Origin: Minisyncoccota bacterium
GTDB lineage: Bacteria; Patescibacteriota; Minisyncoccia; UBA6257; 2-01-FULL-56-20
DNA length: 64,000 nt
NCBI GenBank assembly: GCA_025449695.1
Contig: JANWIW010000036.1
Coordinates: 320-64,319 of the forward strand
Direction of reading: 5' to 3'
Below, in pieces: positions 4,865 to 62,152 of this stretch (position 1 is the stretch's first letter; every line of letters starts with the position of its first letter). The translations under genes and the position numbers were made by a program. The notes beneath the pieces are model-generated. The model saw only the letters and a program-made list of their open reading frames with translations. It did not search any database and was not told the origin of the DNA.

Positions 4865-4870
4865 GGGAGA

Positions 4871-4910
4871 AGTTCCTAGTTCCTAGTTCTTAGTTGCTAG
4901 TTGTGAGTTG
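4871..4910. repeat. tandem heptamer array (AGTTCCT/AGTTCTT/AGTTGCT units) in the gyrA 5' leader
   Basis: agttcctagttcctagttcttagttgctagttgtgagttg immediately upstream of the gyrA ATG (mRNA sense AACUAGGAACUAGGAACUUCUCCC-AUG). Confidence 0.85.
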
Positions 4911-4965
4911 ACACAAACATGGGGACGAAAGCGAATTTATTCACCGTATCATCTCTCTACGCACC

Positions 4966-4998
4966 AAGAACTAAGAACTAGCAACTAGCAACTATCTA
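4966..4998. repeat. inverted-orientation heptamer array (AAGAACT units)
   Basis: caagaactaagaactagcaactagcaactat is the reverse complement of the array at 4871..4910. Together they bracket a 55-bp spacer. Confidence 0.8.
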
Positions 4999-5225
4999 GT
5001 GCCGAATAGTGACTGGAACACCGACGCGGTACCGGACAGTTGCGGCTTCGGCGCCGGGTTCTCGGTCGTGGAAGGCGGCGCGAGCGCTACCATTGCGGGG
5101 AAGACCGCGATCCAGAGAGCCACGACGAGTATCATGGCAGCCGCGGAAATGGCGATCAGCCAGCGCATCTTGATGTGATGCGGCGAGTTCTGAATGCGGT
5201 GGAGGTGGGTTCCGGGAGTCGCCAT
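4992..5225 (-). CDS. small membrane protein (77 aa), hypothetical
   Basis: ORF with one strong TM segment (WLIAISAAAMILVVALWIAVFPAMVALA). Heptamer arrays lie on both sides. Coding status uncertain. Confidence 0.3.
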   Translation of the reverse strand: MATPGTHLHRIQNSPHHIKMRWLIAISAAAMILVVALWIAVFPAMVALAPPSTTENPAPKPQLSGTASVFQSLFGTR

Positions 5226-5228
5226 GGA

Positions 5229-5300
5229 TAGTTCTTAGTTCTTAGTTCTTAGTTCTTAGTTTCATGCTCGCAACTAGGAACTAACAACGCGGAACTATGC
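5229..5300. repeat. tandem heptamer array (AGTTCTT x4) plus inverted partial units
   Basis: gttcttagttcttagttcttagttcttagtttcatgctcgcaactaggaactaacaacgcggaactatg. Confidence 0.85.
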
Positions 5301-26688: not shown

Positions 26689-26771
26689 TGGCCCAGCTTA
26701 ACTGTTTTATATCAATACTATCTAAATTGCTTGGGTGGTCAGCTTAGCTGACCATAACCCACGCTAAGCGT

Positions 26772-27886: not shown

Positions 27887-28038
27887 GATCTATCCTTTCC
27901 GGGTTTTCAACCCTGCTTTTCTGCACACATCTTACCCTAAAGTTTCTATGTTGTCAATAATTTGTATACAGCTTTGTAGTATTGTTTTTACTACACTATC
28001 CGTGTAAAAATGAGATTGTTGTAAGATTGTTTTTACAC

Positions 28039-30487: not shown

Positions 30488-30609
30488 AGTCTAATTTTTC
30501 ACGCAAATCTGTAAATTTTCTTATTACAGCGCGGCCACAATTTGACAATAAAACCAATAAAATCTATGTTTATTAGTATCTTCTGTGTAAGTAACTAACT
30601 TACGACTTT

Positions 30610-31389: not shown

Positions 31390-31396
31390 TGCCTAT

Positions 31397-31801: not shown

Positions 31802-31825
31802 GATGATGTAGGTTCTTTGAGAAGT

Positions 31826-32959: not shown

Positions 32960-32976
32960 GGTTTATCTAAGGATTA

Positions 32977-33690: not shown

Positions 33691-35740
33691 CAGGATCTAT
33701 ATTTTCAAATCTAATTTTTTCCTCATTTAGGTCTTGAATCAACTTTATTAAGTTTTTGTTGCTTCGATCTATCTCTCTATGTTCGTCTGTTGTTTTCTCG
33801 CGATTAAGAACGTTAATCTTTTCCATTGCCTTAAGGGTTGGGTACGTAAAATCCAATGTAAAGTTATTGGTCTTAACTTGCTCAAACTCTTCTATTAACA
33901 TATCCATCTTTGGCCCTACTCCATAGACTCTAACCCAGGCCTTGCTACGCGTCATCGCTGTAAAAAGAATATTTCTTCGCTTTATTATATCGGACCCAAT
34001 ATAAACATATTCTGCGTTGAGAACGTAAACCATTGGGGCTTCGTTCCCTTTCACACGATGAATACCAGAAAGTGTTACAGAATTGTCTTGGTAAAATTCA
34101 TCGCGAGAACTTGTAACTCCTACTATATGAGAATTTATTTTTTTCTTAAAAAGAATTTCAGATAATGGACCTAAGGCTTGAGGAGTAATAAAAGGGTCTG
34201 CGTTAATTACCACGATATCTCTAGTTTGAAGCTCTTCCTTTCTTAAGTTTTTTATAATCTCTTCCGCAACTGATTGAATTTGCTCGGTGTTATTTTTAAA
34301 AGTCTTAAAGACTATAATATCCTCTGCCGGAGAATGTTCTTGAAGAAAGATTGGGCTCGTATCATTAGTACGCTTAAGCCTTACTTTCCTACCATATCCC
34401 AAATCACCACTTTCCACTTGATATCCAATATCTCGCCACAAGGATGGATCATCGAACATCTGGACGAGACCTTCTTGGCGATATATTCCGAAACCTAGAG
34501 CATGGGCAGTTACCAGTACGGGGGCAGAATTTCTATAGCACTTCTCAAGAATAATGTCTTCTTTCGGTTTGTTTGGCTCATTATGAAGCTCGCGCCCCAA
34601 AACTTCTTTCGTGCTGCGCATCGAGGCTTCGTTTAACTTCTGAAGTTCATCGTAAGCCCAAATCAACCTTTTCGGTTTTCTCAATATTGCATAGCAAAGC
34701 TTAAGAAAAGAATCTGAAAAATCTTGCGCTTCATCAATTAGAATAGCGTCATATGTCTCTCTGAACTCATTTTTTTGCTCTAGCGCTTTACTGCAAACTA
34801 AGTCAAATTTATCTCTTCCCCAAGAAGCTGACTCCTTTGAAGTTCGTACATCCATGAACGAAATCCCGTTGTTTACACATATTTCAAAATAGATTCCCGG
34901 AGAACTTGCGCTTCCCCAGGCATGAAGTATCTTCACTTTTTCCCAGTCAGGCTCTTCGTTTTTTTGTTCAATTGTGAACTTAGTTATCAGATCCTTGAAC
35001 TGTCCTTTCAAGGATCTGGAGCTAAATGTTACAGCTATATTCCAATCGGGATGGGTCGAATGCAAGTAAGCAGCTTTTAATGCCAGGATGATGGTTTTTC
35101 CAGAACCTGCTAATCCTCTAATCCTCTGGGGACCCTCTGCGCTCTCAATCACAGCCGCACTCTGATGTCTGTCTAAATTCGCAATTGAATTCTCTAGGTT
35201 TCTAACTTTTGCTCCGCGAGAGTCGCTTTTTACAGTTTCCGGACGCTTTATACCTGCTCTCAATTTCGTAACCGCCTGTACTACAGAAACAAGATGCCTA
35301 AATGTGGTTTCTGACACAGGAACAAGCGTCGAAGACAAAAGGTCGCGCAATCCATCATTGTTTAAAAGTATGTCGGGATCAAGATTGGCCTGGCGACAGC
35401 CAGGTGCATAAGTAACTACATTGACTTCAACCTTCAACTTCCTTTTATCAACTAATTCTTTGTACTGAAGAAGCTTAGCATTTAAGTTATTGTATATTTC
35501 ATCCCTTTTCTGTAGATGATCACTTTGAATGCTGTCTCCCTCTACCAAGTCGAATACTACAAGGCCGTATTGGTTCGAAACGAACATCGCATCTAAAACC
35601 AATGCCCCATTGGGGGTCCCTACGATTGGATAGCCGGTGTACAGTATGCCGCTCAAATCAGCAGACCTACTTCTGAAATAGTCCAACAGTAATCCCGTAG
35701 ATACAGGCTTGGTGTTCGACCCATTGATGACCTCAACCAT
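33641..35740 (-). CDS. superfamily-1 helicase (UvrD/Rep-like ATPase core) with NERD-like N-terminal domain
   Basis: Walker A GLAGSGKT, Walker B ILIDEAQD, motif VI MTRSKAWVRVYG. N-terminal YPIVGTPNGALVLDAMFVSNQYGLVVFDL resembles the NERD nuclease-related domain. Confidence 0.8.
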   Translation of the reverse strand: MVEVINGSNTKPVSTGLLLDYFRSRSADLSGILYTGYPIVGTPNGALVLDAMFVSNQYGLVVFDLVEGDSIQSDHLQKRDEIYNNLNAKLLQYKELVDKRKLKVEVNVVTYAPGCRQANLDPDILLNNDGLRDLLSSTLVPVSETTFRHLVSVVQAVTKLRAGIKRPETVKSDSRGAKVRNLENSIANLDRHQSAAVIESAEGPQRIRGLAGSGKTIILALKAAYLHSTHPDWNIAVTFSSRSLKGQFKDLITKFTIEQKNEEPDWEKVKILHAWGSASSPGIYFEICVNNGISFMDVRTSKESASWGRDKFDLVCSKALEQKNEFRETYDAILIDEAQDFSDSFLKLCYAILRKPKRLIWAYDELQKLNEASMRSTKEVLGRELHNEPNKPKEDIILEKCYRNSAPVLVTAHALGFGIYRQEGLVQMFDDPSLWRDIGYQVESGDLGYGRKVRLKRTNDTSPIFLQEHSPAEDIIVFKTFKNNTEQIQSVAEEIIKNLRKEELQTRDIVVINADPFITPQALGPLSEILFKKKINSHIVGVTSSRDEFYQDNSVTLSGIHRVKGNEAPMVYVLNAEYVYIGSDIIKRRNILFTAMTRSKAWVRVYGVGPKMDMLIEEFEQVKTNNFTLDFTYPTLKAMEKINVLNREKTTDEHREIDRSNKNLIKLIQDLNEEKIRFENIDPDVREQLKKIFLGDEDI

Positions 35741-36163
35741 TTGCTACAGTACACATCATTTATCCTCAACTTGCAAGAATCGCATTTACATGCACGGTAT
35801 CTTGAGGAAGCAGAATTCGTAGCTAAGGTTATGACCTCTAACGTTCTCCTCGGTATAAGCGCAAATACCGCGCAATACTCAAGGATTAGGCTCCTCGTGG
35901 CAGGCGCAACTTTGTTGCTTTGCCTTGAAGTCCTGTCCATTTCGCCTGCCCATTTAAGTGCTTACCAGCGAAAACATGGAAAGCGAAATTTCCTTGTAAA
36001 GCCTAGAAATGTGCTCCGTTTCGCTTTCCACTCTTTGGAAATGGGTAACGCCTCATCGCCCGCTTTTATTGGTCGTACAAGTAAGAGGTCTGTCCCATCC
36101 CGCTTAAAACTGTATAGCGAAAAAGATTACAAAACTTATTAGTAATTTAATTTTGCTATACCT

Positions 36164-36664
36164 TTAGTTTTCTTTCAGTTTCACAAGTGCCGCGTCTTTC
36201 ATGGTTGTGCTGTTCGTTTGTACCGATTGGAACAGTGTCCCAATAATAGACTTGGCATCCGCAGCATTTTGTACATTACTTTTCTGGAACAACTCCACAA
36301 TTACAGGAACAACCTCTCGGAAGTTCTCTCGGGTAATTTGGGTTGCCTTAGCAAGCAATTCGACCACTTCTGAGGTGCTATCTACATCTTTGCCAAGAAC
36401 AGAGTACAGTGGACCGAAACCCACAGCGACTTCCTCAAAGTTCAATCCTGTAAGATTTGATATATCATTTATTTTTGCCTCGGCTCGTTCCACTTCTTCG
36501 GCGGTCATCCCCGTTCTGCCTTGAAGCGTAGCTATGGCTTCTTGGCGCTGTGCCGCTCCGACAAATCCCCAGATCAAGAACGCCACCACCGCTAACAAGA
36601 TTATTCCAGTGATGATCCGGTGACGGCCAAACCAGTTCGTAGTTTTTGTATTTTCTTTATCCAT
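36164..36664 (-). CDS. membrane-anchored hypothetical protein
   Basis: Start at MDKENTKTT. One TM helix (IITGIILLAVVAFLIWGFVGAA), then a soluble domain. Confidence 0.4.
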   Translation of the reverse strand: MDKENTKTTNWFGRHRIITGIILLAVVAFLIWGFVGAAQRQEAIATLQGRTGMTAEEVERAEAKINDISNLTGLNFEEVAVGFGPLYSVLGKDVDSTSEVVELLAKATQITRENFREVVPVIVELFQKSNVQNAADAKSIIGTLFQSVQTNSTTMKDAALVKLKEN

Positions 36665-36765
36665 TATTTTATTTTGGCTTAATTTGAATCTACGGTAGCG
36701 GCGACCTTGTAGCAAAAAACCCGCCACCAGTTGGCCTTTCGGCCTGCAGGAGTTTCCCCCTGCAA

Positions 36766-36806
36766 CGCAAGACGCGTCCCTGATGACGGGATCTTTGCGT
36801 CTTGCG
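36766..36806. repeat. 41-bp hairpin in the divergent intergenic region (CGCAAGACGC ... GCGTCTTGCG)
   Basis: 10-bp perfect stem with a structured loop. It sits where GC content shifts. Candidate operator or recombination site. Confidence 0.5.
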
Positions 36807-36906
36807 ATTTTGAGCCATGCCGTGCAGTCTTCCGCATCGGTTTAGGCTATCCAGCCGTATGTAGTTGTATTCAAATCCTATAGTGTTCCCGCGCTATAAT
36901 CAACGC

Positions 36907-37623
36907 ATGGGAATTGCTCCAATTAAGCTGAATACCGGCCTGGAAATGGAGTTCCTGCGCTGTTGCAAAAGAGAATCGTTCCAAAAGGAGGTCATGGAGC
37001 AGCGTAAGTTGTTGAACATTCCAGGCCAAGGTTTCGAATCCGCTGAGAAGTTTCTAATCCAACAGCTCTTAACTGCGAAATTAGTTGATGTGAACCAGAA
37101 ATACAAGAACTTGAACAAAGGAGCTGCTGAGATTTGTGAAAAACTAGGGTTGCCCATGTATCTGAACAATTTAGTAGAGGCCTATATGGTGCTTGGAGAT
37201 GGATTTAGGGAGTACACATACAACTCTTTTTGGTCTACGGAGGCCGGGTGTCAAATAGACAGCTTAGGAGCGCTAAGAATTGTAAAAATTTATCCTGGAG
37301 CCTCCCGACCGCGAGTACTTAAGTTTATAAATAAAAATTGGGAGATCCTTGCAGGAGGACCTACGTTCAAACAGAGAAATCAGCCCAAGTCGAAACAGCT
37401 TCGTAAACGGCCCAGGGAGGAGAGGGATGAGAAGATATATAAATACTATAAGGCCGGGCTGGTTAGGTATGATGGAAGACCGAATATAAAGAACATCCAG
37501 GAGTTAGTTAAGAAGCCCAACGACAGATTTGTCGGGTTAAAAGATGTAGATCCATTCTTCGCAAGTATGAGAACGGATACTATCCGCAACATTATCAAGA
37601 TCCAGCGCAAGAGACAGCGTTAG
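36907..37623 (+). CDS. hypothetical protein (238 aa), Lys/Arg-rich C-terminus
   Basis: ATG directly after a TATAAT box (possibly leaderless). No recognisable motif. Confidence 0.4.
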   Translation: MGIAPIKLNTGLEMEFLRCCKRESFQKEVMEQRKLLNIPGQGFESAEKFLIQQLLTAKLVDVNQKYKNLNKGAAEICEKLGLPMYLNNLVEAYMVLGDGFREYTYNSFWSTEAGCQIDSLGALRIVKIYPGASRPRVLKFINKNWEILAGGPTFKQRNQPKSKQLRKRPREERDEKIYKYYKAGLVRYDGRPNIKNIQELVKKPNDRFVGLKDVDPFFASMRTDTIRNIIKIQRKRQR

Positions 37624-37792
37624 GAATCTGTCTGGGGGACGTTAATCAGGTTCAAATAAGCAGCCTTCACGGCTACTCTTATTACTTTAAACTCGGCCTT
37701 AAAGGTCGAGATGGAACACAACGAACAAACAATTGAAGATGTTCTCGAAGAGCTGGCTCAACAGCTCGCGGACATCTTTATCGAACAAATAG

Positions 37793-38125
37793 ATGAAAAG
37801 TGCAAAACAGAAGATGAAACGCGAGATACTCCCATCTGACGCTGGAAGGCCAATGTCCGAAGAGGAAAAGGTAGGCTATCTCCAAAACTTGAATCCAATA
37901 TTGCGCACTATCGTTGAGGTGGGAGAGGCTATTCTTTCCTACCAGCCTTTTGTGCCTGTGGCCAACGATAGAGTAATTGGCGACTTGGATGAATTCCTTT
38001 TGCGGCAAAATATCTCCGAGGGATTCGAAAGCCTGGGAGCAGCCTACCGTGAGATCTCAACCAAATGCATGCTCCTGGCGGCGGCAGTAAATCTCTACAC
38101 AGACTACATAATTGATGAAGAGTAG
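37793..38125 (+). CDS. hypothetical protein (110 aa)
   Basis: Overlaps the next ORF. No motif. Confidence 0.3.
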   Translation: MKSAKQKMKREILPSDAGRPMSEEEKVGYLQNLNPILRTIVEVGEAILSYQPFVPVANDRVIGDLDEFLLRQNISEGFESLGAAYREISTKCMLLAAAVNLYTDYIIDEE

Positions 38126-38483
38126 CGCCGGAAGGTTCGTAATCCTTTACTGGTCAGCTCTGACAGATTTCGGACTTTCCATCCATGAAGCCGCGCTGCT
38201 CCAACTATACTGCAGCTTATCGAACAATAGGGGGTATTCCTACGCGAGCATAGTCACTTTGGCGCGGATCATGGGCCTGTCAAAGCAAACCATCCGCAAC
38301 CTCAACTGGTCGCTAAGCGAGGCAGAGCTGATAACTATCGCCTATCGGCAAGGGCAAAAGTTCAACCGCGTGGTGGTATCCTCCAAATGGAAATCTTACA
38401 TAGGCCTGGAGGGACATGGCGACGGTTCTTCCGTGCTTAACGAGGACCTTTGGGGAACGGACGAGGATGATAAAAAATCTTGA
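38112..38483 (+). CDS. winged-helix/HTH DNA-binding protein, replication-initiator or regulator-like
   Basis: YSYASIVTLARIMGLSKQTIRNLNWSLSEAELI is an HTH of the kind found in phage/plasmid replication-organiser proteins. Confidence 0.4.
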   Translation: MMKSSAGRFVILYWSALTDFGLSIHEAALLQLYCSLSNNRGYSYASIVTLARIMGLSKQTIRNLNWSLSEAELITIAYRQGQKFNRVVVSSKWKSYIGLEGHGDGSSVLNEDLWGTDEDDKKS

Positions 38484-38659
38484 GGGGTGTCGGAGAGAGT
38501 CAAAAAATTGGGGCTGGGGAGCTCAAAATAGTTTATGCGCCGGGCTCCAATTTCTTGAGCCAATATATATAAATGATAAGAATAAAAATAACTTGTAATT
38601 GCATCCTTCGGATCAATTACACTCTCTCTAATTTAAATTAGGGTGCCATCCCTTAAAAA

Positions 38660-40456
38660 GTGTTGGAAAATAAAAAGATGGAAAACAACAAAGTTGCGGC
38701 GATCTACTGCCGCGTCAGCACGGAGGACCAGGCCACCCATGGGATCTCCATAGAAGCGCAGGAGAGGGTGTGCGGCGAGGTCATCGAAAAAGAAGGGTAC
38801 GCCCTGCTTGAGGTCATCAAAGACGAGGGCAAGAGCGGCGGGAACCTGAACCGAGCAGGCATTAAGAGGCTAAAAGAACTCTGCGAGAAGAAGCTCATTA
38901 CCGCCGTTTTCATGGTCCATGCGGACCGCCTCTCCCGCAACACGGCCGACTACATCGGCATGATGGACTTCTTCAAAGAGAAAGGCGTCATGGTCCGCTT
39001 CGTATATCAGCCAACGATGGACCGCAGCACCGCCACCGGACAAACCATGGACACCGTGATGGCGGTGTTCAACGAACACTTCCGCCTGACCATCAAAGAG
39101 AAGACGAAGGCCACGCTCGACCAAAAGGCAAAGGCTGGGCTCTTCCCCGGCACCGCACCGTTAGGCTACATGAACGTGGACAATCCCTCGCCAACAAAGA
39201 TAGGCAAGCGCATCATCGCGCCTGACCCCGTAGGCGCTCCGTTCGTCCAGGAAGCCTTTAAGCTTTATGCCACAGGCAACTATAACGGCTTCGAGCTGAA
39301 CGAAATGATGTACCGGAAGGGTTTCCGCACCAAACGGGGCCTGAAGGTCCACCTAAGCCGCTTCTACGGCATGCTGGTGAACCCCATCTACGTCGGCGAA
39401 CTGCATTGGGGTGACATCCATCTCTCCAGGGCGCAGCACGAACCGCTTATAGACCGTGACCTGTTTGATAAAGTGCAGCGGGTCATGGCGGCGCATAACA
39501 AGCATGCCACTCGGAAGAGGAAATACACATTCCTCCTGCGAGGGTTCCTGAGGTGTCAGGAGCACCGGGACCGCAAGTACACGGCAGGACACACGGCCAA
39601 GCCCAGCGGCCTCATCTTTTCCTACTACCACTGTACGAACCGCTTCGGTTGTGCAGGCGGCTATGTGGACACGGATACACTGGAAGGTGAGGTGGCCTTG
39701 GAGTTTAAAAGACTGAAGTTTTCGGAAAGCTTCACAAACCGGGTCATCGGGAAAGCGAAGGCCGAGTTCGATGCCCGGCGCAAATCTTATGAACAGAAGA
39801 TAGCTCGCTTGGATGGCCAAAGGAATAAGCTATTTGCCCGCCGAAAGATCGCGGAGACCAAGATGTTCTCCGGCGTGCTTTCGGACGATGACTTTACCCG
39901 GATCAGGCAGGAGATAGCCGATGAGGTGAAGGTTATAGACGGCGAAAAGGCGAAGCTCGAGCAGCAGGACCACATACGGGTGGATATCGCTCAGGAGATA
40001 ACGGCTTTTATGCGAGATATGTACGCCACGTACAAAAAGGCTCATCCCATCCAGCAACGCCATTACCTAAACCTGTTCTTTGAACATCTGTTTGTCTATA
40101 AGGGCAAGGTCCAAGAGGTCGCGTGGAGCGGCCTCTTTGCTTCTTTGCTCAATTTGCAACATATAGAACAACAGAAAACCACAGGGAATATGGACCCAGT
40201 TAAAATAAGCTATGCCTGGGGTGCCCGACGGGATTTGAACCCGCAACCACTTCTGCCACAGAGAAGTGCTCTACCGTTGAGCTACGGGCACCATAGGTAC
40301 GGCGCAATTCTACCGCACCGCAGCCGATCCTTCAATCTTCATTCTGTATTAGGCCGTCTGCACTACGCTGGGGAATACGCGGAGGCCATCTGGACACCGC
40401 CTCGTGAAAAGTCCTACAATAGGAGGACTTCGCCGGACCGCACATCCCAAACATGA
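38660..40456 (+). CDS. large serine recombinase (resolvase/invertase N-domain, recombinase domain, zinc-ribbon); 3' tail reads antisense through tRNA-His
   Basis: AAIYCRVSTEDQ...S catalytic Ser region, YVGELHWGDIHLSRAQHEPLIDRDLFDKVQ recombinase domain, Cys cluster CQEHRDRKY...YYHCTNRFGC. No in-frame stop until the ATGA overlap with ftsH. The last ~80 codons lie antisense to tRNA-His and are low complexity. Confidence 0.75.
   Translation: MLENKKMENNKVAAIYCRVSTEDQATHGISIEAQERVCGEVIEKEGYALLEVIKDEGKSGGNLNRAGIKRLKELCEKKLITAVFMVHADRLSRNTADYIGMMDFFKEKGVMVRFVYQPTMDRSTATGQTMDTVMAVFNEHFRLTIKEKTKATLDQKAKAGLFPGTAPLGYMNVDNPSPTKIGKRIIAPDPVGAPFVQEAFKLYATGNYNGFELNEMMYRKGFRTKRGLKVHLSRFYGMLVNPIYVGELHWGDIHLSRAQHEPLIDRDLFDKVQRVMAAHNKHATRKRKYTFLLRGFLRCQEHRDRKYTAGHTAKPSGLIFSYYHCTNRFGCAGGYVDTDTLEGEVALEFKRLKFSESFTNRVIGKAKAEFDARRKSYEQKIARLDGQRNKLFARRKIAETKMFSGVLSDDDFTRIRQEIADEVKVIDGEKAKLEQQDHIRVDIAQEITAFMRDMYATYKKAHPIQQRHYLNLFFEHLFVYKGKVQEVAWSGLFASLLNLQHIEQQKTTGNMDPVKISYAWGARRDLNPQPLLPQRSALPLSYGHHRYGAILPHRSRSFNLHSVLGRLHYAGEYAEAIWTPPREKSYNRRTSPDRTSQT
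40217..40292 (-). tRNA. tRNA-His(GTG) with encoded G-1 and CCA
   Basis: G-1 + GTGCCCG acceptor pairing with C73, anticodon loop CTGTGGC, T-arm GCGGG-TTCAAAT-CCCGT, 3' CCA encoded. Confidence 0.9.
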
Positions 40457-46400: not shown

Positions 46401-47021
46401 TCAGGATGACAGAGGAGCTGATTTTTTGGTTACTTCGTTCTTCTTCACGATGCCGTCGATCAAGCCGTACTTCACGGACTCGTCCGCGGTCAGGAAGTAA
46501 TCGCGGTCGGTGTCCTTCTCGATCTTCTGGAGCGGCTGTCCGGTGTGCCTGGCGAGGATCTGGTTCAGGCGGTCTTTCATCTTCAGGATCTGCCGTGCGC
46601 CTATTTCAATCTCCGTGGCCTGTCCGCCGATGCCCTCAATCATGACCTGGTGGATCAGAATCTCCGAGCTCGGCAACGCGAAGCGGCGCCCTTTGGCCCC
46701 TGCGGCGAGAAGCACCGCGCCCATAGAGGCGGCGAGTCCCACGCATATCGTGGACACCTCGGAGCGGACGTACTGCATCACGTCGTAGATCGCGAGGCCG
46801 GCCGTGACCGAGCCTCCCGGCGAATTGATGTAGAGCTTGATCTCTTTCTTCGGATCCTCGTATTCAAGGAAGAGCAACTGCGCCATGACGTTGTTCGCGA
46901 GCTGATCGGTGATCGGCCCCCCGAGGAAGATGATGCGTTCCTTCAAGAGGCGCGAGTAGATGTCATAAGCGCGCTCGCCGAACTGGGATTTCTCGATTAC
47001 GGTCGGGATCAGGTATTCCAT
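46401..47021 (-). CDS. clpP: ATP-dependent Clp protease proteolytic subunit
   Basis: Ser-His-Asp catalytic context ([14 protein letters not shown], ...HQ...), about 200 aa. The terminal LSS-stop is supplied by a CTGTCATCCTGAG repeat copy. Confidence 0.95.
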
Positions 47022-47025
47022 GGGG

Positions 47026-47058
47026 TAGTTTTTAGTTTCAAGTTTTTAGTTGCGAGTG
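47026..47058. repeat. tandem heptamer array in the clpP 5' leader
   Basis: tagtttttagtttcaagtttttagttgcgagtg (mRNA sense AACUAAAAACUUGAAACUAAAAACUACCCC-AUG). Confidence 0.85.
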
Positions 47059-49236: not shown

Positions 49237-49240
49237 CGGA

Positions 49241-49280
49241 CAGTTGTTAGTTTTTAGTTTGTAGTTGTTAGTGTAACAAA
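49241..49280. repeat. tandem heptamer array in the hppA 5' leader
   Basis: cagttgttagtttttagtttgtagttgttagtgtaacaaa. Confidence 0.85.
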
Positions 49281-53414: not shown

Positions 53415-53762
53415 ATGTTGACCGACCAAGAGATTGCAATGTATACACGGAGGCTTGAGGCGGAGCGGGAAAGGCTTTTGAAGGAGATTGGAGTCGACTC
53501 CGAGCCCCATAACCAGGGCAACGACGTGACCAAGGCAGGAGATGAAGAGGCGGATGAGGCGGAGGACTTCTCTAACAAGCTGGCCATTGCCCAGACCCTG
53601 CGGGACGAAGTGCAGGAGATCGATGCGGCCCTGGAGAAGATTCGCAAGGGAACCTACGGGAATTGCGAAAAGTGCGGCCTCGAGATACCGAAGCCCCTCT
53701 TGAGCATCGCCCCCGAATCCATCCTCTGCGAGAAGTGCAAGCTGGAAACGGAGAGGAATTAG
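53415..53762 (+). CDS. DksA/TraR-family C4 zinc-finger protein
   Basis: C-terminal GTYGNCEKCGLEIPKPLLSIAPESILCEKC (CxxC...CxxC), preceded by a coiled-coil with acidic tip residues. Confidence 0.75.
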   Translation: MLTDQEIAMYTRRLEAERERLLKEIGVDSEPHNQGNDVTKAGDEEADEAEDFSNKLAIAQTLRDEVQEIDAALEKIRKGTYGNCEKCGLEIPKPLLSIAPESILCEKCKLETERN

Positions 53763-53810
53763 TAATTGGTACTTAGGAACTACGAAGTCCTAGTTGTTGA
53801 TTACTGATAC
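53761..53810. repeat. degenerate heptamer-type repeat patch
   Basis: agtaattggtacttaggaactacgaagtcctagttgttgattactgatac. Confidence 0.6.
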
Positions 53811-53850
53811 CTTTTATCTTTTTTTGAGCTAGATTGGTCACAATTGCGAC

Positions 53851-55383
53851 ATGGGTGCGACTGTCGCCAAGATCCTCTCTGCGGAACTGGAAGGAGTGTC
53901 CGCGAATCTGATAGAAGTGGAGGTAGATCTGAACGCCGGGGGAGTGCCTGCGATCGCTATCGTCGGATTGGCGGACAAGGCGGTCGGGGAGGCGAAGGAA
54001 CGGGTGAATTCCGCGCTCGCCAATACCGGCGTGAAACCGCCGAACCGGGAGAATCGCCGGATTACCGTGAACCTCGCGCCGGCGGACGTGAAGAAGACCG
54101 GCTCGCACTATGACCTGGCCATCGCGATCGGCTATCTGCTCGCAACGGCACAGGTGTTGCCTTTCAGAACGGAGGAAGCGGTCTTCGCCGGAGAGCTTGC
54201 CCTCGACGGGCGGTTGCGGCCGGTTCCCGGCGCCCTGGCCATCGCGGAGATGTGCGCGAGGCTTAAAATCGCGTGGCTCTACCTTCCCCGCGAGAACGCG
54301 AACGAAGCGAGCGCCATCGATGGCGTGAAGGTTATTCCACTGGCCAACCTGCGGCAGGGGATCGATGTGCTCGAAAAAAGAACGGTCGTACTGCCGCATA
54401 CGATGATGGCGATAGAGAGCGCGCGAAGGCATATCCCCGATCTTTCCGAGATAAAAGGGCAGGGGCATGCCAAACGTGCGCTCATGATATCCGCGGCCGG
54501 AGGACACAACGTGCTCTTGACCGGTCCGCCCGGAGCGGGGAAGAGCCTGCTCGCGCAGGCACTGGTCGGGATACTGCCCGAACTTTCGCGCATGGAATCC
54601 ATCGAGGTCACGAAGATATGGAGCGCGGGCGGTCAGATGCCGCACGGATTGATTGCCGAACGCCCTTTTCGCGCGCCGCATCAGACCGCGTCTCTTGCCG
54701 CGGTGATCGGGGGAGGCGGCGATCCGAGACCTGGCGAGATCAGCCTGGCCCATCGGGGTGTGCTCTTCCTGGACGAGCTGCCGGAGTTTCCGCGCGCGGT
54801 CCTTGAAGCGCTGCGCGCGCCCTTGGAGGATGGCGTGGTCCGCATATCCCGGGTGCGCGGCACGCTGCTCTTCCCCGCACAATTTGCCCTGGTCGCCGCG
54901 ATGAACCCTTGTCCCTGCGGTTACTTCGGCGACCCGGAGAAAGACTGCCGGTGCGCGGCCTATGAGGTCATGCGCTACCAAGGCAGGATTTCCGGGCCTT
55001 TATTGGACCGCATCGACCTCCAGATCCATCTACCGCGGGTGGCGACCGCGGTCCTGCGGGAGCATGCACCGGACAGAGGTTCGGAGAGCCGGACCGCAAA
55101 ACAGCATGTGGAAGCGGCGCGGGCGGCGCAGCTTGCGCGCTTTCGCGGCCACTCCCGGGGCATCGTTTCCAATGCGGAGATGTCTGCGAGGGATACCGAA
55201 GGCGCCCTGCCGCTCGAGCGTGATGCGGAACGGTTCCTGGATACACTCTCGGAGAAAAACCTTTCCCCGCGGGGCTACTATCGTCTTCTCAAGACCGCGC
55301 GGACAATCGCCGATCTGGACGGCATGGAAAAGACAACCTCGGCACATCTGGCCGAAGCGTTCGGGTATCGCGTACGGGAATAG
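53851..55383 (+). CDS. comM: YifB/ComM-family Mg-chelatase-like AAA+ ATPase
   Basis: N-terminal Lon-like domain, Walker A LLTGPPGAGKS, sensor/arginine finger regions. 510 aa. Confidence 0.9.
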   Translation: MGATVAKILSAELEGVSANLIEVEVDLNAGGVPAIAIVGLADKAVGEAKERVNSALANTGVKPPNRENRRITVNLAPADVKKTGSHYDLAIAIGYLLATAQVLPFRTEEAVFAGELALDGRLRPVPGALAIAEMCARLKIAWLYLPRENANEASAIDGVKVIPLANLRQGIDVLEKRTVVLPHTMMAIESARRHIPDLSEIKGQGHAKRALMISAAGGHNVLLTGPPGAGKSLLAQALVGILPELSRMESIEVTKIWSAGGQMPHGLIAERPFRAPHQTASLAAVIGGGGDPRPGEISLAHRGVLFLDELPEFPRAVLEALRAPLEDGVVRISRVRGTLLFPAQFALVAAMNPCPCGYFGDPEKDCRCAAYEVMRYQGRISGPLLDRIDLQIHLPRVATAVLREHAPDRGSESRTAKQHVEAARAAQLARFRGHSRGIVSNAEMSARDTEGALPLERDAERFLDTLSEKNLSPRGYYRLLKTARTIADLDGMEKTTSAHLAEAFGYRVRE

Positions 55384-56568: not shown

Positions 56569-58554
56569 ATGGTCTCTAAAACCTTTACGAAATCAGGGAA
56601 AACCCAAGAAAACCAAGGATCGCCGGCTCTGAACCCCGATCAGGAGCGGGCGGTGAGGGCAGCGCCGGATAAGCCTCTCCTCATCGTGGCCGGAGCGGGG
56701 ACCGGCAAGACCGCCACCCTGACCAGCCGGGTGGCGTTCCTTATAAAAGAGGGGGTGCCCCCGGCTTCCATCTGCGCCATAACCTTCACCAACAAGGCCG
56801 CCCGGGAGATGGAAGAACGGATAGTTTCAAGTTTTAAGTTTTTAGCTTCTAGTGAAGACGAACCTCCAAAAACTAAAAACTACCCGCTGAAAACTAGGCC
56901 CTTTATCGGGACCTTTCACGCCTTCGGCGCGCGCATACTCAGGCGGCATGCGGCCCTCCTCGGCCGGACGCCGGGCTTCGTAATATTCGACGACCATGAT
57001 TCTTTCTCCCTGGTCAAGAAAATATTGAAGGACATGGACCGCCGCAAGGAAAGCCCGGCCATAATTCTCGGAAAGATCTCCGCGCTGAAGAACACTCCTT
57101 CCGGGGACCAGAAAGCCAAGCTAGATGCAGAGGCGCCGCTCGTGCAGTCTGTATTCGCGCGCTACGAAGCGGGGCTGGAGGAACAGAACGCTTTCGACTT
57201 TGACGACCTGCTGGCTAAAGTAGTGCTTCTCTTCCACAAGGCACCCGCCGTCCTCGACCGCTACCGGGCACAGTTCACCCACATCCTGATCGACGAGTAT
57301 CAGGACCTGAACGACCTCCAGTACGAGTTCACCCGCCTCCTTGTCGGAGACCGCGCCTCTATCTCGGTGGTCGGCGACGCGGAACAAACCATCTACGGAT
57401 GGCGGGGCTCCAATATCGAGATCTTCCTCCGTTTCCCGGACGATTGGGCGGAGGCGCACATGGTGACGCTGGACCAGAATTACCGTTCCACCCGGCACAT
57501 CCTGCGCGCGGCTTCCGGCGTGATCCAAAACAACGTGTACGACACGAAGGTCCAGCGCGCGACCGGCCTGTGGACTGAGAATGCGGAGGGAAAGAAAGTG
57601 GTCGCGCACGAGGCGCTGGGTGAAGACGCGGAAGCGGAGTGGATCGCGGAGCAGATAGGTTACAGGTTACAGGGTACAGGTTACAGAAAGAACGCGGACA
57701 CCGAGCCTGGAAGCCCAGGGCTGGAAGCTATAAGCTCGACTGCCATTCTCTACCGGACAAACGCGCAATCGCGCGCGCTGGAGCAGGCGCTCCTGCGACG
57801 GCGCATCCCGTACCGCGTGTACGGAGGATTGAAGTTCTACGAGCGCCGCGAGATCAAGGACATCGTCGCTGCCCTTCGTTATTCGCTGAACCCGAAGGAC
57901 CAACTCGCGCAGGAACGGCTGGAGAAGAACTTCTCGAAACGGATGTTCAGAACCCTGGCGGATGCGTTCGCGAACCATCCCGACCCGTCACCCCTGGCCC
58001 GCATCGACCTTTTCCTGAAGACAGCGGGCTACTTCGAGTACATGGAACGGAACATGACCAACCCCAGGGAACGCCGGGAAAACATAGAAGAATTGGTTCA
58101 CTTCGCCGCGGGCTACAAGGATATCGCGGAATTCCTGGGTGAGATCGCCCTCCTGCAATCCACCGACAACCTGAATGCGAACGGCCGCAGGATCAGAGCC
58201 GAGGCGCCGGGACAGACTCCGCAGGAGGAACATGCGGTTAGCCTGATGACGATCCATCTCGCCAAGGGACTGGAGTTTGACCGCGTGTTCGTGGCCGGGG
58301 TCGTAGAAGGGGTCCTGCCCCATGCGCGCTCCATGGGCAGCGTGGACGAGGTGCAGGAGGAGCGGCGGCTGATGTACGTCGCCATGACCCGTGCGCGCAA
58401 AGAGCTTTACCTGAGCTTCTACGAATTGCCTTCCCGTTTCCTGGGAGAAGTTCCCGAAGATACGCTGGAGTTCCAGAGCGAAACGGGCACCGATCGTAAG
58501 TCGCTCGATTACGACGGAGAAGAATATGAGGAGCGGTATATCAGCCTTGATTAG
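56569..58554 (+). CDS. UvrD/PcrA/Rep-family ATP-dependent DNA helicase carrying in-frame repeat-derived insertions
   Basis: Motifs I (AGAGTGKT), Ia (TFTNKAAREM), II (ILIDEYQD), III (GDAEQTIYGWRG), IV (YRST), V/VI (HLAKGLEFDRVF, MYVAMTRARK). Extra segments SSFKFLASSEDEPPKTKNYPLK and GYRLQGTGYRKN are encoded by heptamer repeat DNA. Confidence 0.9.
   Translation: MVSKTFTKSGKTQENQGSPALNPDQERAVRAAPDKPLLIVAGAGTGKTATLTSRVAFLIKEGVPPASICAITFTNKAAREMEERIVSSFKFLASSEDEPPKTKNYPLKTRPFIGTFHAFGARILRRHAALLGRTPGFVIFDDHDSFSLVKKILKDMDRRKESPAIILGKISALKNTPSGDQKAKLDAEAPLVQSVFARYEAGLEEQNAFDFDDLLAKVVLLFHKAPAVLDRYRAQFTHILIDEYQDLNDLQYEFTRLLVGDRASISVVGDAEQTIYGWRGSNIEIFLRFPDDWAEAHMVTLDQNYRSTRHILRAASGVIQNNVYDTKVQRATGLWTENAEGKKVVAHEALGEDAEAEWIAEQIGYRLQGTGYRKNADTEPGSPGLEAISSTAILYRTNAQSRALEQALLRRRIPYRVYGGLKFYERREIKDIVAALRYSLNPKDQLAQERLEKNFSKRMFRTLADAFANHPDPSPLARIDLFLKTAGYFEYMERNMTNPRERRENIEELVHFAAGYKDIAEFLGEIALLQSTDNLNANGRRIRAEAPGQTPQEEHAVSLMTIHLAKGLEFDRVFVAGVVEGVLPHARSMGSVDEVQEERRLMYVAMTRARKELYLSFYELPSRFLGEVPEDTLEFQSETGTDRKSLDYDGEEYEERYISLD
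56825..56896. repeat. intragenic inverted heptamer-repeat element (in-frame) inside the helicase gene
   Basis: tttcaagttttaagtttttagcttctagtg...aaaaactaaaaactaccc. The right arm is identical to the clpP leader repeat AACTAAAAACTACCC. Confidence 0.8.
57658..57687. repeat. intragenic tandem heptamer array (GGTTACA x4), in-frame inside the helicase gene
   Basis: ggttacaggttacagggtacaggttacaga encoding GYRLQGTGYR. Confidence 0.8.
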
Positions 58555-58625
58555 GTTCTAACCGTTCTAGCCGTTCCAGCGTTGTAGCGTTACGATTATC
58601 ACGACTAGAACGCTTAGCACATCTT
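58555..58625. repeat. 8/9-bp period tandem repeats between the helicase and ksgA
   Basis: gttctaaccgttctagccgttccagcgttgtagcgttacg...gactagaacgcttagcac. Confidence 0.75.
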
Positions 58626-58639
58626 GAACATTCTATTCT

Positions 58640-59440
58640 ATGCGTCAAAACCTTGGACAACACTTTCTGAATAATAAGGGGGTCCTCCGCCGGATCGCCG
58701 AGACGGTCGCCGCCGCCGATGCGGACACGATCATAGAGATCGGTCCCGGCCACGGGGAACTTACAGAGTTTCTAGTTGCTAGTTTTCAGTTTTCAGACAA
58801 GAACGAATCCCATCTCCGGCTTTTCCTTATCGAACGGGACCCCACGCTTGCGGAGGCGCTGCGAACGAAATTCGCCGATGACAAGCAGATCAGTGTCATT
58901 GAGGATGACGTCCTGGATGCCTTGGGCCCTATGACCCACGACCCACGACTTACGACTTACGCGATCTGCGGCAACCTGCCCTACTATCTCACCGGCCATC
59001 TTTTGCGCCTCATAGGAGAACTGCCGGAAATGCCCGCGGCGTGCGTGTTCACCATTCAAAAGGAAGTGGCGGAACGGCTGGCCGCCAAACCTCCACGCAT
59101 GAACAGGCTCGCGGCCGCAGTCCAGTTCTGGGCGGAGCCGAAGGTGATCGGGCTTATCTCCCGCAAGGATTTCTCACCGCCGCCGGAGGTGGACTCCGCC
59201 ACGGTGATGCTAAAGACGCGGCCCGGCGACCGCGGTGACGGTGACAGCTACTACCGCATGGTAAGGATCCTCTTTCAACAACCCAGAAAGACCATCGGCA
59301 ACAACCTCGCCGCTGCGGGCCTTTCAAGAGAAAACATCGCCGCAGGCTTCGCCAAGCTGGAGATAGATCCGGGAAACCGGCCTCAGGACTTAGGCATCGA
59401 GCAAATATCGAAAATCGCAGAGATCTTCCATGGTCTGTGA
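58640..59440 (+). CDS. rsmA: 16S rRNA (adenine1518/1519-N6)-dimethyltransferase KsgA/RsmA carrying in-frame repeat segments
   Basis: GQHFLNNKGVLRRI, SAM motif IIEIGPGHGELT, catalytic CGNLPYY. An insert FLVASFQFSD lies relative to the usual spacing between LT and LIE-D. Confidence 0.9.
   Translation: MRQNLGQHFLNNKGVLRRIAETVAAADADTIIEIGPGHGELTEFLVASFQFSDKNESHLRLFLIERDPTLAEALRTKFADDKQISVIEDDVLDALGPMTHDPRLTTYAICGNLPYYLTGHLLRLIGELPEMPAACVFTIQKEVAERLAAKPPRMNRLAAAVQFWAEPKVIGLISRKDFSPPPEVDSATVMLKTRPGDRGDGDSYYRMVRILFQQPRKTIGNNLAAAGLSRENIAAGFAKLEIDPGNRPQDLGIEQISKIAEIFHGL
58768..58798. repeat. intragenic heptamer array (AGTTGCT/AGTTTTC units), in-frame inside ksgA
   Basis: gtttctagttgctagttttcagttttcagac encoding FLVASFQFSD. 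Confidence 0.8.
58923..58952. repeat. intragenic heptamer array (ACGACCC/ACGACTT), in-frame inside ksgA
   Basis: gacccacgacccacgacttacgacttacgc encoding THDPRLTTY. Confidence 0.8.
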
Positions 59441-59617: not shown

Positions 59618-62152
59618 ATGAGAGGTGAAGAACTATACCTAATGCCCCATAGCGTTAAAAGCTTCGTAACGGCCTTCCTGGCAGTGGCCATCTTATTAAG
59701 TTCGACCTTCGTAGCCGGCTCTCTATATATAAATAGTAGACCGGTTCCCAAGGCCGTTCAGACCGCCCCTCACGTGACGAACGCCTTTGTGGACTCTTAC
59801 CCCGGGGGGGCGACCGATCCTGAAGTTCTGGCACTGCAACTGCGGGACGAGAACAACATGACCGGGCAGATCGCGAACGTCCTGGCGCAGGAACTGCTTA
59901 AGGCCAATCCCAACGGTCCGATTGATCAGAATGGAGAAAGCGTGATCGAGGTGCCGGGCAACCTGAACGTCTTAATTGACGAATATTTGCAGGGACATCC
60001 CAAATCGGAGGGACAGCTTGTGCCAAAGATAAGCGATAAGGATCTCGCGCTGACCGACGCCACCGACGCGCAGGCCATCACCCGCTATCTTGCCCAGGTG
60101 GAAGAAATCGTGAGCAAGCTTCCTCCGGAGCTGGAAGCGGTGGACGCCTCGACCGCCGAGTTTATGGTCAACCAGAACATTGAGATGTTCCACAAGACCT
60201 CGGGGCAGTTCAAATCGGTGAAGGTGCCGAGATCGATCGCTGACTTCCATAAATCGCTTTTGTTCTCCTTCCAGATATCCGCCAACTTCACACAACTGCT
60301 GGCCAGCGATCCCCTGGGAGCCGCCGCGCTCGGCGACACGTATCAAAGAGAGGTCACCAAAGCGCTGGATGATCTGACCGCAGAAGCGGAGCGGCTGCAG
60401 TCGGCCGGACTCATTCCCGCCCAAGAACGGCCCCTGGTGCAAAAACTGCTTGGCATTGAGACCGCTTACGCCTTCAGCGACGTTCCCGCATTCGCGCAAA
60501 GGGTCATCCAGATCGCTTACCAGATCAAGAAGTTCTACGACGATTACCTCAAGAAGTACATGGACATACTTCTTGAATACGCCAAGAACACCGTCCTTAA
60601 GGCGATGGCTGCGCAAGTGGTGAACTGGGTGGCGGGAGGCCCGGAACCGCAATTCGTAACGAATTGGGATGGCTTCTTAAGGCAGGCTGCGGATAACGGC
60701 ATCGGCAGGGTGCTGAACGAGGCCCTGCCCGCGGTGTGCGGAGGGCCCGACGACATCGGAAACCTGCTGACCAATGGCGCGCTTGGCCAGATGGCCCAGC
60801 TTATCCGGGACATCATGCAGCCCGTGAACACCCTGAACGGCAATTTGCCGTATGAACAATGCACGCTGAGCAAGGTGGTGCAAAACTTCAAAGACTTTGA
60901 ACGCGACCTAAGGAACGGCGGCTGGGTCGCGTACGCGGAACTCATGAAGCCCCAGAACACCCTGAACGGCAACCTGATCGCTATCGCCGACCGGAAACTC
61001 ACCATCGCCGGCAAACAGAGGGAAGAAGCCGAGAAACAAGCTGCGGCCGGCTCCGGATTCACCGGACAGCAGCTCTGCGACGACGGCAAGAAACCGCTCG
61101 ACAAGGGAGGTGCCGACGCCTACAACGCGCAGTTCATCGGCCCGGTCCAGCCGGGCAAGCAAAAGAATCCGGGAGATTGCGCCGATGGCAGCAGCCCCCA
61201 CGTCGCGACCCCCGGCATCTTCTCGAAGGACCTCACCAGCAAAGGATTCGATCATGCCTACGACAGGCTGGTCAATGCCCGCGATTGGAAGGCCATGCTG
61301 GCCTATGTCGCGGACATGGCGCTGAGCAACTTCATGAAAAAAAGCGCGAAAGGGCTTTTGAGCTACGCGCAAAGCACCAAGAGTTCCGGCGGGGGAGGAG
61401 GCAACGGAGGCCCGGTCACATCGCAGGCGCCCAACCCGGAACCAACAGCCACAAGCACCCTTGAGGAGGCTGGGCAGATACTGGCACGAAAGGAATCCTC
61501 CTTGGAAGACGCGCGCCGCTATGTGCAGTCGCTGACCGATACGGTCAACGCGCTGAATAACATACTGGGCGCGTGCAAGTCCGAGGCCAATGTTGTCGCC
61601 GACGCCAAAGTCCAGCTTCCTCCCCTCATGAGTCTGCGAGATACCATCAGCCTCAAGGTAGAAGACCTGAAGGCGGCGGTGGATGGACTCCGGCTCTTTA
61701 CCGCAACCCCGGGCAGCGCCGCCACGCTCCATACGCAGTTTGGAACTCTGGCCCAGGCGCAGACGGAAGCGGATAATCTCTCCATCCAACGCCAAAAAGC
61801 GGACGGGGTTACGCTCCAAACGCAAAATCTCTTCGTTGCCTGCAGCCAAAACTCCCTCTCCTTCCCGACGGACGGCGGCAATCCCGCGGAGACGAAGGTG
61901 GTCATCACCACGCCTGCCGACGGGGCAGCCGTGACAGGGACGGTGAACGTGAACGCCCAGGCCGTTGACGGCACCATCAAGCTCGAGATCTACATTGACG
62001 GAGCGCTGGCGGCTTCGCAAGAGAACGCAACCACGCTCACTCATCCATGGGACGCATCAGGGAGCGGTTCCCATACTATTTACGCCAAGGCTTATGACGC
62101 CGCGGCCACTGCGGCAACCTCAGCCACGGTAACTGTCACCTCGGGCCCATGA
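59618..62152 (+). CDS. large secreted/membrane-anchored protein (844 aa) with C-terminal Ig-like domain
   Basis: N-terminal signal anchor. C-terminus TKVVITTPADGAAVTGTVNVNAQAVDGTIKLEIYIDG...HTIYAKAYD resembles a bacterial Ig-like/BIG fold. Gly-rich linker. Confidence 0.55.
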   Translation: MRGEELYLMPHSVKSFVTAFLAVAILLSSTFVAGSLYINSRPVPKAVQTAPHVTNAFVDSYPGGATDPEVLALQLRDENNMTGQIANVLAQELLKANPNGPIDQNGESVIEVPGNLNVLIDEYLQGHPKSEGQLVPKISDKDLALTDATDAQAITRYLAQVEEIVSKLPPELEAVDASTAEFMVNQNIEMFHKTSGQFKSVKVPRSIADFHKSLLFSFQISANFTQLLASDPLGAAALGDTYQREVTKALDDLTAEAERLQSAGLIPAQERPLVQKLLGIETAYAFSDVPAFAQRVIQIAYQIKKFYDDYLKKYMDILLEYAKNTVLKAMAAQVVNWVAGGPEPQFVTNWDGFLRQAADNGIGRVLNEALPAVCGGPDDIGNLLTNGALGQMAQLIRDIMQPVNTLNGNLPYEQCTLSKVVQNFKDFERDLRNGGWVAYAELMKPQNTLNGNLIAIADRKLTIAGKQREEAEKQAAAGSGFTGQQLCDDGKKPLDKGGADAYNAQFIGPVQPGKQKNPGDCADGSSPHVATPGIFSKDLTSKGFDHAYDRLVNARDWKAMLAYVADMALSNFMKKSAKGLLSYAQSTKSSGGGGGNGGPVTSQAPNPEPTATSTLEEAGQILARKESSLEDARRYVQSLTDTVNALNNILGACKSEANVVADAKVQLPPLMSLRDTISLKVEDLKAAVDGLRLFTATPGSAATLHTQFGTLAQAQTEADNLSIQRQKADGVTLQTQNLFVACSQNSLSFPTDGGNPAETKVVITTPADGAAVTGTVNVNAQAVDGTIKLEIYIDGALAASQENATTLTHPWDASGSGSHTIYAKAYDAAATAATSATVTVTSGP

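Follow-up and report, generated by a model that had tools for sequence, protein, structure and literature searches.

How do tandem repeats of seven nucleotides, a length that is not divisible by three, come to lie inside two conserved coding sequences whose reading frames remain open? The question is raised by a 64,000-nucleotide stretch of a Minisyncoccota bacterium (positions 320 to 64,319 of contig JANWIW010000036.1, assembly GCA_025449695.1; hereafter the window), in which heptamer repeats occur in the gene for a UvrD/PcrA-type helicase and in ksgA, the gene for the KsgA/RsmA 16S rRNA dimethyltransferase (Table 1). The initial annotation had listed two patches in the helicase open reading frame (ORF), at 56825..56896 and 57658..57687, and two in ksgA, at 58768..58798 and 58923..58952; Tandem Repeats Finder (TRF) returned period-7 arrays at all four. 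We refer to the corresponding loops as H1 and H2 in the helicase and K1 and K2 in KsgA. The explanation that we favour, with a probability of roughly 0.55, is that the patches are members of a dispersed family of heptanucleotide arrays, that is, passive repeats that have been filtered by selection. On the evidence of sequence comparison, they are not one-off insertions but recurrent, long-lived and probably ancient repeat-encoded loops.

The repeat signal is real and lies far beyond chance. In a self-match scan of the entire window, 21-nt windows with at least 18 matches were found at period 7 only (49 positions), while periods 3-6 and 8-12 gave none. A scan with 35-nt windows returned 12 period-7 arrays and at most four for any other period; the other periods with arrays were multiples of three or seven only, and seven is the sole non-triplet period enriched in the window. 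Eight of these 12 strong arrays are intergenic. The other four reside in the helicase and ksgA genes, and the remaining coding sequence of the window holds none. In the helicase, TRF delimited period-7 arrays at 56823-56842 (AGTTTTA x2.9), 56868-56882 (AAAAACT x2.1) and 57657-57686 (AGGTTAC x4.3), and in ksgA at 58781-58796 (AGTTTTC x2.3), 58933-58949 and 58945-58961. The intergenic units are mostly AGTTnnT (TAGTTCT, AGTTCCT, AGTTGCT, AGTTTTT and others) or its complement, and most units consist of AG followed by five A/T-rich bases on one strand. Inverted pairs are frequent among the arrays and give palindromes of ~70-140 nt with the downstream arm placed against a start codon; several intergenic pairs fold as long hairpins whose 5-bp stems are broken every seven bases. 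No array in the window matched any Rfam family at the gathering threshold.

The identity of the two host genes is well defined. The helicase carries both domains of the superfamily-1A enzymes (Pfam UvrD-helicase, 3.7e-74; UvrD_C, 4.7e-61), matches PcrA (1pjr) with E=3e-108, and shows the conserved motifs around the loops when aligned with 1pjr and with UvrD (2is1). KsgA exhibits the RrnaAD fold, the GPGxG motif for S-adenosylmethionine and the NLPY motif (Pfam; alignment with 6ifs and 3tqs). Its AlphaFold model has a mean predicted local distance difference test score (pLDDT) of 92.4, and the helicase model is likewise confident outside the loops. The gene ksgA starts 85 nt downstream of the helicase gene. 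Both ORFs are intact and their Pfam matches run across the repeat patches, and therefore the reading frame is kept in both genes, as the initial annotation had stated.

The H1 element is an in-frame palindrome that sits between motif Ia (TFTNKAA) and GTFH. Its left arm (56822-56856; TAGTTTC AAGTTTT AAGTTTT TAGCTTC TAGTGAA) is separated by a spacer (56857-56867) from the right arm (56868-56898; AAAAACT AAAAACT ACCCGCT GAAAACT AGG). The loop is longer by ~13 residues than that of PcrA and by 12 than that of UvrD, and it is modeled with pLDDT below 50 at helicase residues 95-106. Translational bypass of H1 was considered and rejected: the frame is open, there is no in-frame stop, and no matched take-off and landing codons are present. 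The second helicase loop, H2 (57658-57741), begins with four copies of GGTTACA just after the EAEWIAEQI helix. A degenerate stretch that had escaped the initial annotation, H2b, completes the enlarged loop ahead of AILYRTNAQ. The whole loop has a period-7 autocorrelation (p7) of 0.51 and ~13 extra residues compared to PcrA, fewer compared to UvrD; its pLDDT is below 50 at residues 371-386. The RNA fold gave no hairpin signal at H2.

The K1 array of KsgA takes its start from the conserved GAG codon that follows GPGHGELT, with the AG of that codon as its first two bases. The peptide that it encodes forms the end of a helix and the start of a 9-residue insertion relative to the B. subtilis enzyme (6ifs). 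The pLDDT at residues 51-60 is 66. The K2 array lies just before the GNLPYY motif. It adds no net length, because the loop is three residues shorter than in B. subtilis KsgA (alignment with 6ifs and 3tqs), and it is modeled with high confidence (pLDDT 90-93). The earlier claim that the repeats add or replace residues is thus upheld loop by loop, with gains of 12-13 residues at H1, ~13 at H2 (compared to PcrA), 9 at K1 and none at K2. The accompanying claim of loop placement between conserved motifs was supported for H1, H2 and K1, which are low-confidence loops in the AlphaFold models; K2 is well modeled. By RNA folding H2, K1 and K2 are not palindromic (z-scores of at least 0 in the window for H2, K1, K2 and the K1-K2 pair). 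None of H1, K1 and K2 contains more than two identical adjacent units, and the arrays comprise 2-4 imperfect copies each overall.

How the arrays are read by the ribosome is visible in their phase. Units in the AGTT orientation usually begin with TAG, which in the coding copies occurs out of frame only; the in-frame xAG positions read AAG, GAG or CAG. Since stop codons are avoided in frame, the arrays are translated. The patches are repeats at the level of DNA, because a 7-nt period cannot derive from a peptide repeat. The notion of repeats that selection tolerates only in frame, put forward in the initial annotation, agrees with these observations, the arrays being stop-free, translated and, at H1, H2 and K1, placed in loops.

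Comparison with relatives alters how the patches are to be read. Among named organisms, the helicase finds its best relatives in Candidatus Liptonbacteria, Paceibacterota and other Patescibacteria; identity is ~67% in the nearest relatives, and the genes for ComM, M23 peptidase, helicase and KsgA follow one another in conserved order. Our set of loci (handles with the prefix L) was retrieved as relatives of the window helicase, except for L004 and L006, which are named metagenome-assembled genomes of candidate phyla. Pattern scans of genome and metagenome contigs supplied outgroups; among the matches listed, identity was mostly 35-39%, the best being 45% and 51%. Relatives with ~38-67% helicase identity carry arrays of 7-9 nt at the same loops, with different units and often as in-frame palindromes. 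In L001, at 67% identity, H1 is an (AGAGCTT)n...(CGCTCTT)n palindrome and H2 is (GAAGTTTG)4 with an inverted arm; further arrays occupy a third helicase loop, K1 and K2, and all of these units are wholly unlike those of the window. Arrays at the same loops are also present in L002, L004, L005, L006, L088, L089, L093, L165, L167, L168, L169 and L170. Because relatives bear arrays at the same loops with different units, the patches are not the simple lineage-specific insertions that the initial annotation had envisaged. H1, with the size and architecture of a leader palindrome and a shared 15-mer, is the only patch that looks like an inserted element; H2 and K2 use other units.

The sites and the register are conserved while the units are not. 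The K1 arrays share one register at the GAG codon in six lineages (the window, L001, L168, L169, L170 and L171). Arrays at the K2 site occur in L001, L002, L165, L088, L004, L168 and L169; in the first four of these they extend the native AAG CTC codons, and they look as if seeded on those codons. KsgA measures 265-266 aa in three lineages, and therefore the arrays replace sequence, adding no length compared to those relatives. Units are specific to a genome yet common to loci within it: GAGAGCG/GAGAGCT recurs at H1, K1 and K2 of L001, and AATTYTC at both H2 and K1 of L169. Telomerase-like templated addition of one fixed unit at breaks, which the (U)n...(rcU)n layout had brought to mind, was rejected, as the unit is not constant in a genome, nor even along a single array. 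In a set of 152 helicase H1 loops, 12 measured at least 30 aa, and six of these had seven as their best period (p7 0.44-0.59); a p7 of 0.44 was not reached by any of the 140 shorter loops. Two loci with short loops, L164 and L166, are array-free over 13-19 kb. Low-complexity inserts specific to a lineage were also seen at further loops of KsgA from other Patescibacteria (P0132, P0134, P0213, P0224 and P0145), for instance after PPR/MNRL and in the C-terminal half; at least some of these inserts are 7-nt arrays too (L169 5592-5621; L170 3243-3274).

These independent loci also speak to the trivial explanation. Metagenome assemblies can collapse or mis-join repeats, and both window proteins are singletons (cluster size 1). 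However, an assembly artefact, or low-complexity sequence arisen by chance, is scarcely conceivable here: the frames are intact, both proteins model well on either side of the patches, period 7 alone is enriched, and the same loop architecture recurs in independent assemblies from NCBI, JGI, ENA and Logan. The assembly error that had been named as a possible refutation is not borne out.

The resemblance of H1 to intergenic members of the family raises the possibility of a mobile palindrome. Within the window, arrays abut the start codons of gyrA (4864, minus strand), a small ORF (5226, minus), the dCMP deaminase gene (9983, plus), glyA (17706, minus), clpP (47021, minus) and the H+-pyrophosphatase gene (49236, minus). 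Read in the sense of the gene, each presents (xxxAACT)n, a short pyrimidine-rich stretch and the ATG, always in a single orientation; the arrays extend over 4865-5003(-), 5224-5292(-), 9944-9978, 17707-17780, 47022-47051(-) and 49237-49273(-). There is no obvious GGAGG between these arrays and the ATG. The divergent glyA and its neighbour have one palindrome between them, each arm facing one gene, and the small ORF at 5226 is membrane-like. The leader arrays may constitute a leader or translation-initiation element. The hairpins of the gyrA and small-ORF leaders fold with z=-6.0 (4865-5003) and -3.2 (5224-5292), GyrA being assigned by Pfam, and H1 has its intergenic prototype in these arrays. 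The sharing extends to clpP (46401-47021, minus; Pfam 1.3e-81). The initial annotation had noted an arm common to the first helicase patch and the clpP leader, and this is correct: the 15-mer AACTAAAAACTACCC is exact at 56871-56885(+), in the right arm of H1, and at 47023-47037(-), directly upstream of the clpP ATG. It includes the array terminus ACTACCC, and three more copies with two mismatches are found in other arrays (0.05 expected).

Such likeness would follow if a miniature palindromic element were mobilised in trans, had preferred sites, and were kept in coding sequence only when in frame. The element would resemble a miniature inverted-repeat transposable element (MITE), a repetitive extragenic palindrome (REP) or a Rickettsia palindromic element (RPE). 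The 77-nt arm-spacer-arm plan of H1 and its size match those of the intergenic palindromes at 4865-5003, 5224-5292 and 17707-17780, and the 15-mer with its terminus is common to H1 and a leader. The long H1 loops of L001, L088, L167 and L169 are likewise in-frame palindromes, and in-frame palindromic insertions are documented for RPEs (PMC10969869). We nonetheless regard this explanation as unlikely. H1 is the only patch in which an in-frame palindrome, a conserved gene and a tolerant site come together; H2, K1 and K2 are non-palindromic, and K1 and K2 are in register with native codons. No target-site duplication was found in the sequence flanking H1, and there is no full-length consensus: copies have unit type and short stretches in common, exact sharing is confined to the 15-mer, and arm units, spacer and length differ between copies. 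A Pfam run on ~20 ORFs of the window identified no transposase nearby. In deep lineages, moreover, the same loops are filled by unrelated sequences.

The distribution of the arrays over genes is strongly skewed. We counted strong period-7 arrays in ten relatives' loci with gene calls, some of which had been chosen for proteins with long loops. There were 14 in 23.4 kb of helicase and KsgA coding sequence, one in 109 kb of all other coding sequence, and six in 10.6 kb of intergenic sequence. This amounts to a ~65-fold enrichment of the helicase and ksgA genes over other coding sequence across lineages; the choice of long-loop loci inflates the helicase and KsgA count, but not the near-absence in other coding sequence.

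One reading of this bias is that the arrays are contingency loci, non-triplet arrays maintained through second-order selection, since the gene is reversibly frameshifted whenever a unit is gained or lost. The helicase OFF state would then be a switchable hyper-recombination or mutator state, and the KsgA OFF state would make ribosome methylation switchable. The orthologues of both proteins are dispensable in E. coli, for which reason OFF states could be viable, and loss of KsgA in model bacteria confers resistance to kasugamycin. Units of 7 nt, not divisible by three, do lie inside both reading frames, with several arrays per gene; the enrichment in the same two genes spans lineages, and the sites persist while the units turn over. 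Yet the tracts are short and imperfect (at most two identical adjacent units at K1, K2 and H1; 4.3 copies with 91% match at H2), and slippage rates would therefore be low. The arrays occupy loops in mid-gene rather than positions towards the 5' end, and neither gene is of a class typical of phase variation. No frameshifted H1 allele was present among 171 loci, which are consensus assemblies in which minority alleles are invisible; the lone candidate was a spurious second motif. The arrays of L002 and L003, two assemblies with the same helicase protein, are identical. We consider reversible switching improbable.

A different kind of function would reside in the nucleic acid itself, with in-frame hairpins and a K1-K2 helix that regulate expression or processing of the helicase-ksgA pair as mRNA or single-stranded DNA. 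The hairpin at H1 is conserved in position and not in sequence in L001 (z -4.5), L088 (-3.5), L169 (-5.4) and L167 (-5.8), whereas the long H1 loops of L002, L004 and L035 do not fold. The window copies are weak or unstructured; H1 has z=-2.0, and the other loops and the K1-K2 pair show the z-scores given above. The K1 and K2 arrays are mutually reverse-complementary in L001 (9545-9721; GAGAGCG versus AGCTCTC) and in L168 (5126-5337; AGGTTTT versus AAAACCT). In both relatives they are predicted to pair over a conserved coding stretch of ~130 nt, and in L001 they are near-perfect complements (z -5.0). Apart from L001, however, pairing within a lineage is no better than pairing across lineages, and template switching can mechanically yield complementary arms. 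Reverse complementarity is exact even between the native codons at the two sites, GAGCTT at K1 and AAGCTC at K2. A general long-range K1-K2 RNA helix in ksgA was rejected, given z +1.3 in the window and self-pairing that, except in L001, does not exceed cross-lineage pairing. With no Rfam match either, a regulatory role of these structures appears decidedly improbable. Taken more broadly, active maintenance of the arrays in the helicase and KsgA genes across Patescibacteria, whether as reversible frameshift switches or as in-frame regulatory hairpins, is distinctly unlikely in our estimate; it would account for the ~65-fold enrichment and for the conserved sites and register in the face of unit turnover.

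We return to the passive repeats filtered by selection. On this explanation, arrays would arise and turn over by slipped-strand mispairing, and their arms would stay complementary through template switches from one inverted copy to its neighbour. The leader-type palindrome at H1 and the AGTTnnT units at K1 would stem from arrays elsewhere in the genome that were occasionally copied ectopically. Selection would act as a filter only, admitting arrays whose total length is a multiple of three, which have no in-frame stop, and which fall in a loop indifferent to sequence. Such loops would be old, self-renewing "microsatellite loops" whose peptide content has no dedicated function.

Several points weigh against this explanation. 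A single 7-nt slippage step shifts the frame, so that build-up within a gene should pass through null alleles. The 7-nt periodicity persists at the same sites across proteins that are 40-50% identical, longer than is expected of unselected microsatellites. The H1 palindromes of several lineages are very stable (z -4.5 to -5.8), which could reflect selection on structure. A neutral filter also leaves the gene bias unaccounted for, as many other proteins must have tolerant loops; the count behind that bias is inflated for the helicase and KsgA by the choice of some loci. It is because the gene specificity and the accumulation of 7-nt units without null intermediates are unaccounted for that our confidence is held at 0.55.

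Other features of the window and of the related loci are of note. The helicase-ksgA spacer, whose inverted arrays were likewise absent from the initial annotation, is laid out as GTTCTAACC GTTCTAGCC GTTCCAGC GTTGTAGC ... GACTAGAAC GCTTAGCAC ATCTTGAAC and folds with z=-2.0. The array upstream of comM (Mg-chelatase-like, 53851-55383; Pfam) belongs to a local cluster of arrays at 53.7-59 kb. Downstream of ksgA, an 844-aa protein with a C-terminal Big_7 domain (59618-62152) occupies the first position of a cluster which, 3' of ksgA in relatives, contains TrbL_3, PrgI, TraC-like and TraG/DUF87 ATPase genes and is type IV secretion-like (L002 10824-17923, L164 3724-12872, L165 12725-21640). A free-standing LAGLIDADG_1 homing-endonuclease-like gene adjoins the UPF0102 gene in L001 (2513-2986), L165 (6510-6989) and L167 (2829-3290), and one helicase relative (P0063, 1020 aa) has an intein domain. 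Elsewhere in the window, an island of low GC content (26000-39500; GC 0.39-0.50, ~0.58 elsewhere) is bounded by tRNA-His (40217-40291, minus). Its genes include a large serine recombinase (38660-40456), a second UvrD-like helicase (33641-35740, minus), a DUF2290 protein (32977-33690, minus), a PIN_12 protein (31826-32959, minus) and a LOOT RNA (36733-36848, minus). The island resembles an integrated element that may contain a defence module. Between the ORFs 6770-8347 and 8633-9343, a short way upstream of tRNA-Arg and tRNA-Pro, lies a group I catalytic intron (8399-8620, minus; Rfam RF00028, 68.6 bits).

Table 1. Host genes and heptamer-type arrays of the window (positions in the 64,000-nucleotide stretch).
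Feature	Position	Strand	Description
UvrD/PcrA-type helicase gene	56569..58554	+	661 aa; hosts loops H1 and H2; ORF call and Pfam
KsgA/RsmA 16S rRNA dimethyltransferase gene	58640..59440	+	266 aa; hosts loops K1 and K2; RrnaAD Pfam 1.1e-40
H1, in-frame palindromic heptamer element	56822..56898	+	77 nt; encodes VSSFKFLASSEDEPPKTKNYPLKTR
H2a, (GGTTACA)x4 array	57658..57686	+	encodes GYRLQGTGYR; just after EAEWIAEQI helix; TRF 4.3 copies, 91% match
H2b, degenerate period-7 stretch	57707..57741	+	CTGGAAG CCCAGGG CTGGAAG CTATAAG CTCGACT
K1 array	58767..58796	+	AGTTTCT AGTTGCT AGTTTTC AGTTTTC AG; encodes EFLVASFQFS
K2 array	58928..58961	+	CCTATGA CCCACGA CCCACGA CTTACGA CTTACG; encodes PMTHDPRLTTY
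Three same-family arrays forming two hairpins	4865..5288	-	one upstream of gyrA (ATG 4864), one of a small ORF (ATG 5226)
clpP leader array	47022..47051	-	mRNA sense GCAACTA AAAACTT GAAACTA AAAACTA CCCC-ATG
Degenerate period-7 stretch	53747..53824	+	upstream of comM
Helicase-ksgA spacer, inverted pair of 8-9-nt arrays	58555..58639	+	ends at ksgA ATG; TRF period 9

If the neutral reading is true, these loops are a natural example of non-triplet repeats that build and rewrite surface loops in uncultivated bacteria with small genomes. The lineage-specific inserts of the two proteins in Patescibacteria would then be explained in part, and annotators would have to bear in mind that the low-complexity loops of the helicase and KsgA are driven by DNA. 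If the gene specificity instead reflects selection, it would point to a level of control not described so far, in organisms whose regulators are very few; it could consist of switchable genes for DNA repair and ribosome modification or of in-frame regulatory hairpins.

The patches share traits with four known systems. With contingency loci they have in common a non-triplet unit within coding sequence, such that a change of one unit would switch the gene off or on; they differ in that the tracts are short, imperfect and in mid-gene, and in that the genes encode a repair helicase and an rRNA methyltransferase instead of surface or restriction-modification functions. RPEs (Ogata et al. 2000/2002, as reviewed in PMC10969869) are ~150-bp elements that fall into ten families, the encoded peptide being conserved within each, and are found in dozens of unrelated genes. 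An in-frame palindromic repeat that adds a fold-compatible peptide to a housekeeping protein is what that source reports for RPEs, and it fits H1. The present arrays, however, are 30-77 nt long, are built of 7-nt units, have no full-length consensus and are concentrated in two genes, where other lineages have unrelated sequences in their place.

Closer in unit length are the TAACTGA direct repeats of marine Beggiatoaceae, cyanobacteria and Bacteroidetes described by MacGregor in 2015, which lie a few nucleotides upstream of start codons; copies within ORFs are rare, occur in the stop-free orientation only and are at positions that the protein tolerates (PMC4679880). The window shares with them the heptamer arrays next to start codons, AACT within the unit, and tolerated stop-free copies in ORFs. 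No TAACTGA array was among the arrays detected, the units here being variable (AAGAACT, AGGAACT, AAAAACT, GTTTACT and others). The TAACTGA copies in ORFs are at protein termini or in hypothetical proteins, whereas ours lie in the middle of the genes for two conserved enzymes, between catalytic motifs. Inverted pairs are common in the window, compared to a single indirect repeat among 170 sets in that study (PMC4679880).

Heptanucleotide arrays rank as the commonest long simple repeats in prokaryotes (PMC4679880); we found no paper in the literature searched that pairs heptamer repeats with Patescibacteria, the candidate phyla radiation (CPR) or Parcubacteria. The long simple sequence repeats (LSSR) and the cyanobacterial short tandemly repeated repetitive sequences (STRR), as outlined in PMC4679880 and PMC4692102, are tandem 7-nt units in 2-5 copies, dispersed, with related genome-specific units and mostly intergenic. 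The window presents the same picture, with head-to-tail 7-nt repeats beyond chance that are dispersed, related and mostly intergenic (8/12). Unlike the LSSR and STRR so described, they are hosted by a Patescibacterium and frequently form palindromes through inverted pairs, and several are translated within conserved housekeeping genes; at the same loops, arrays are met again in deep lineages.

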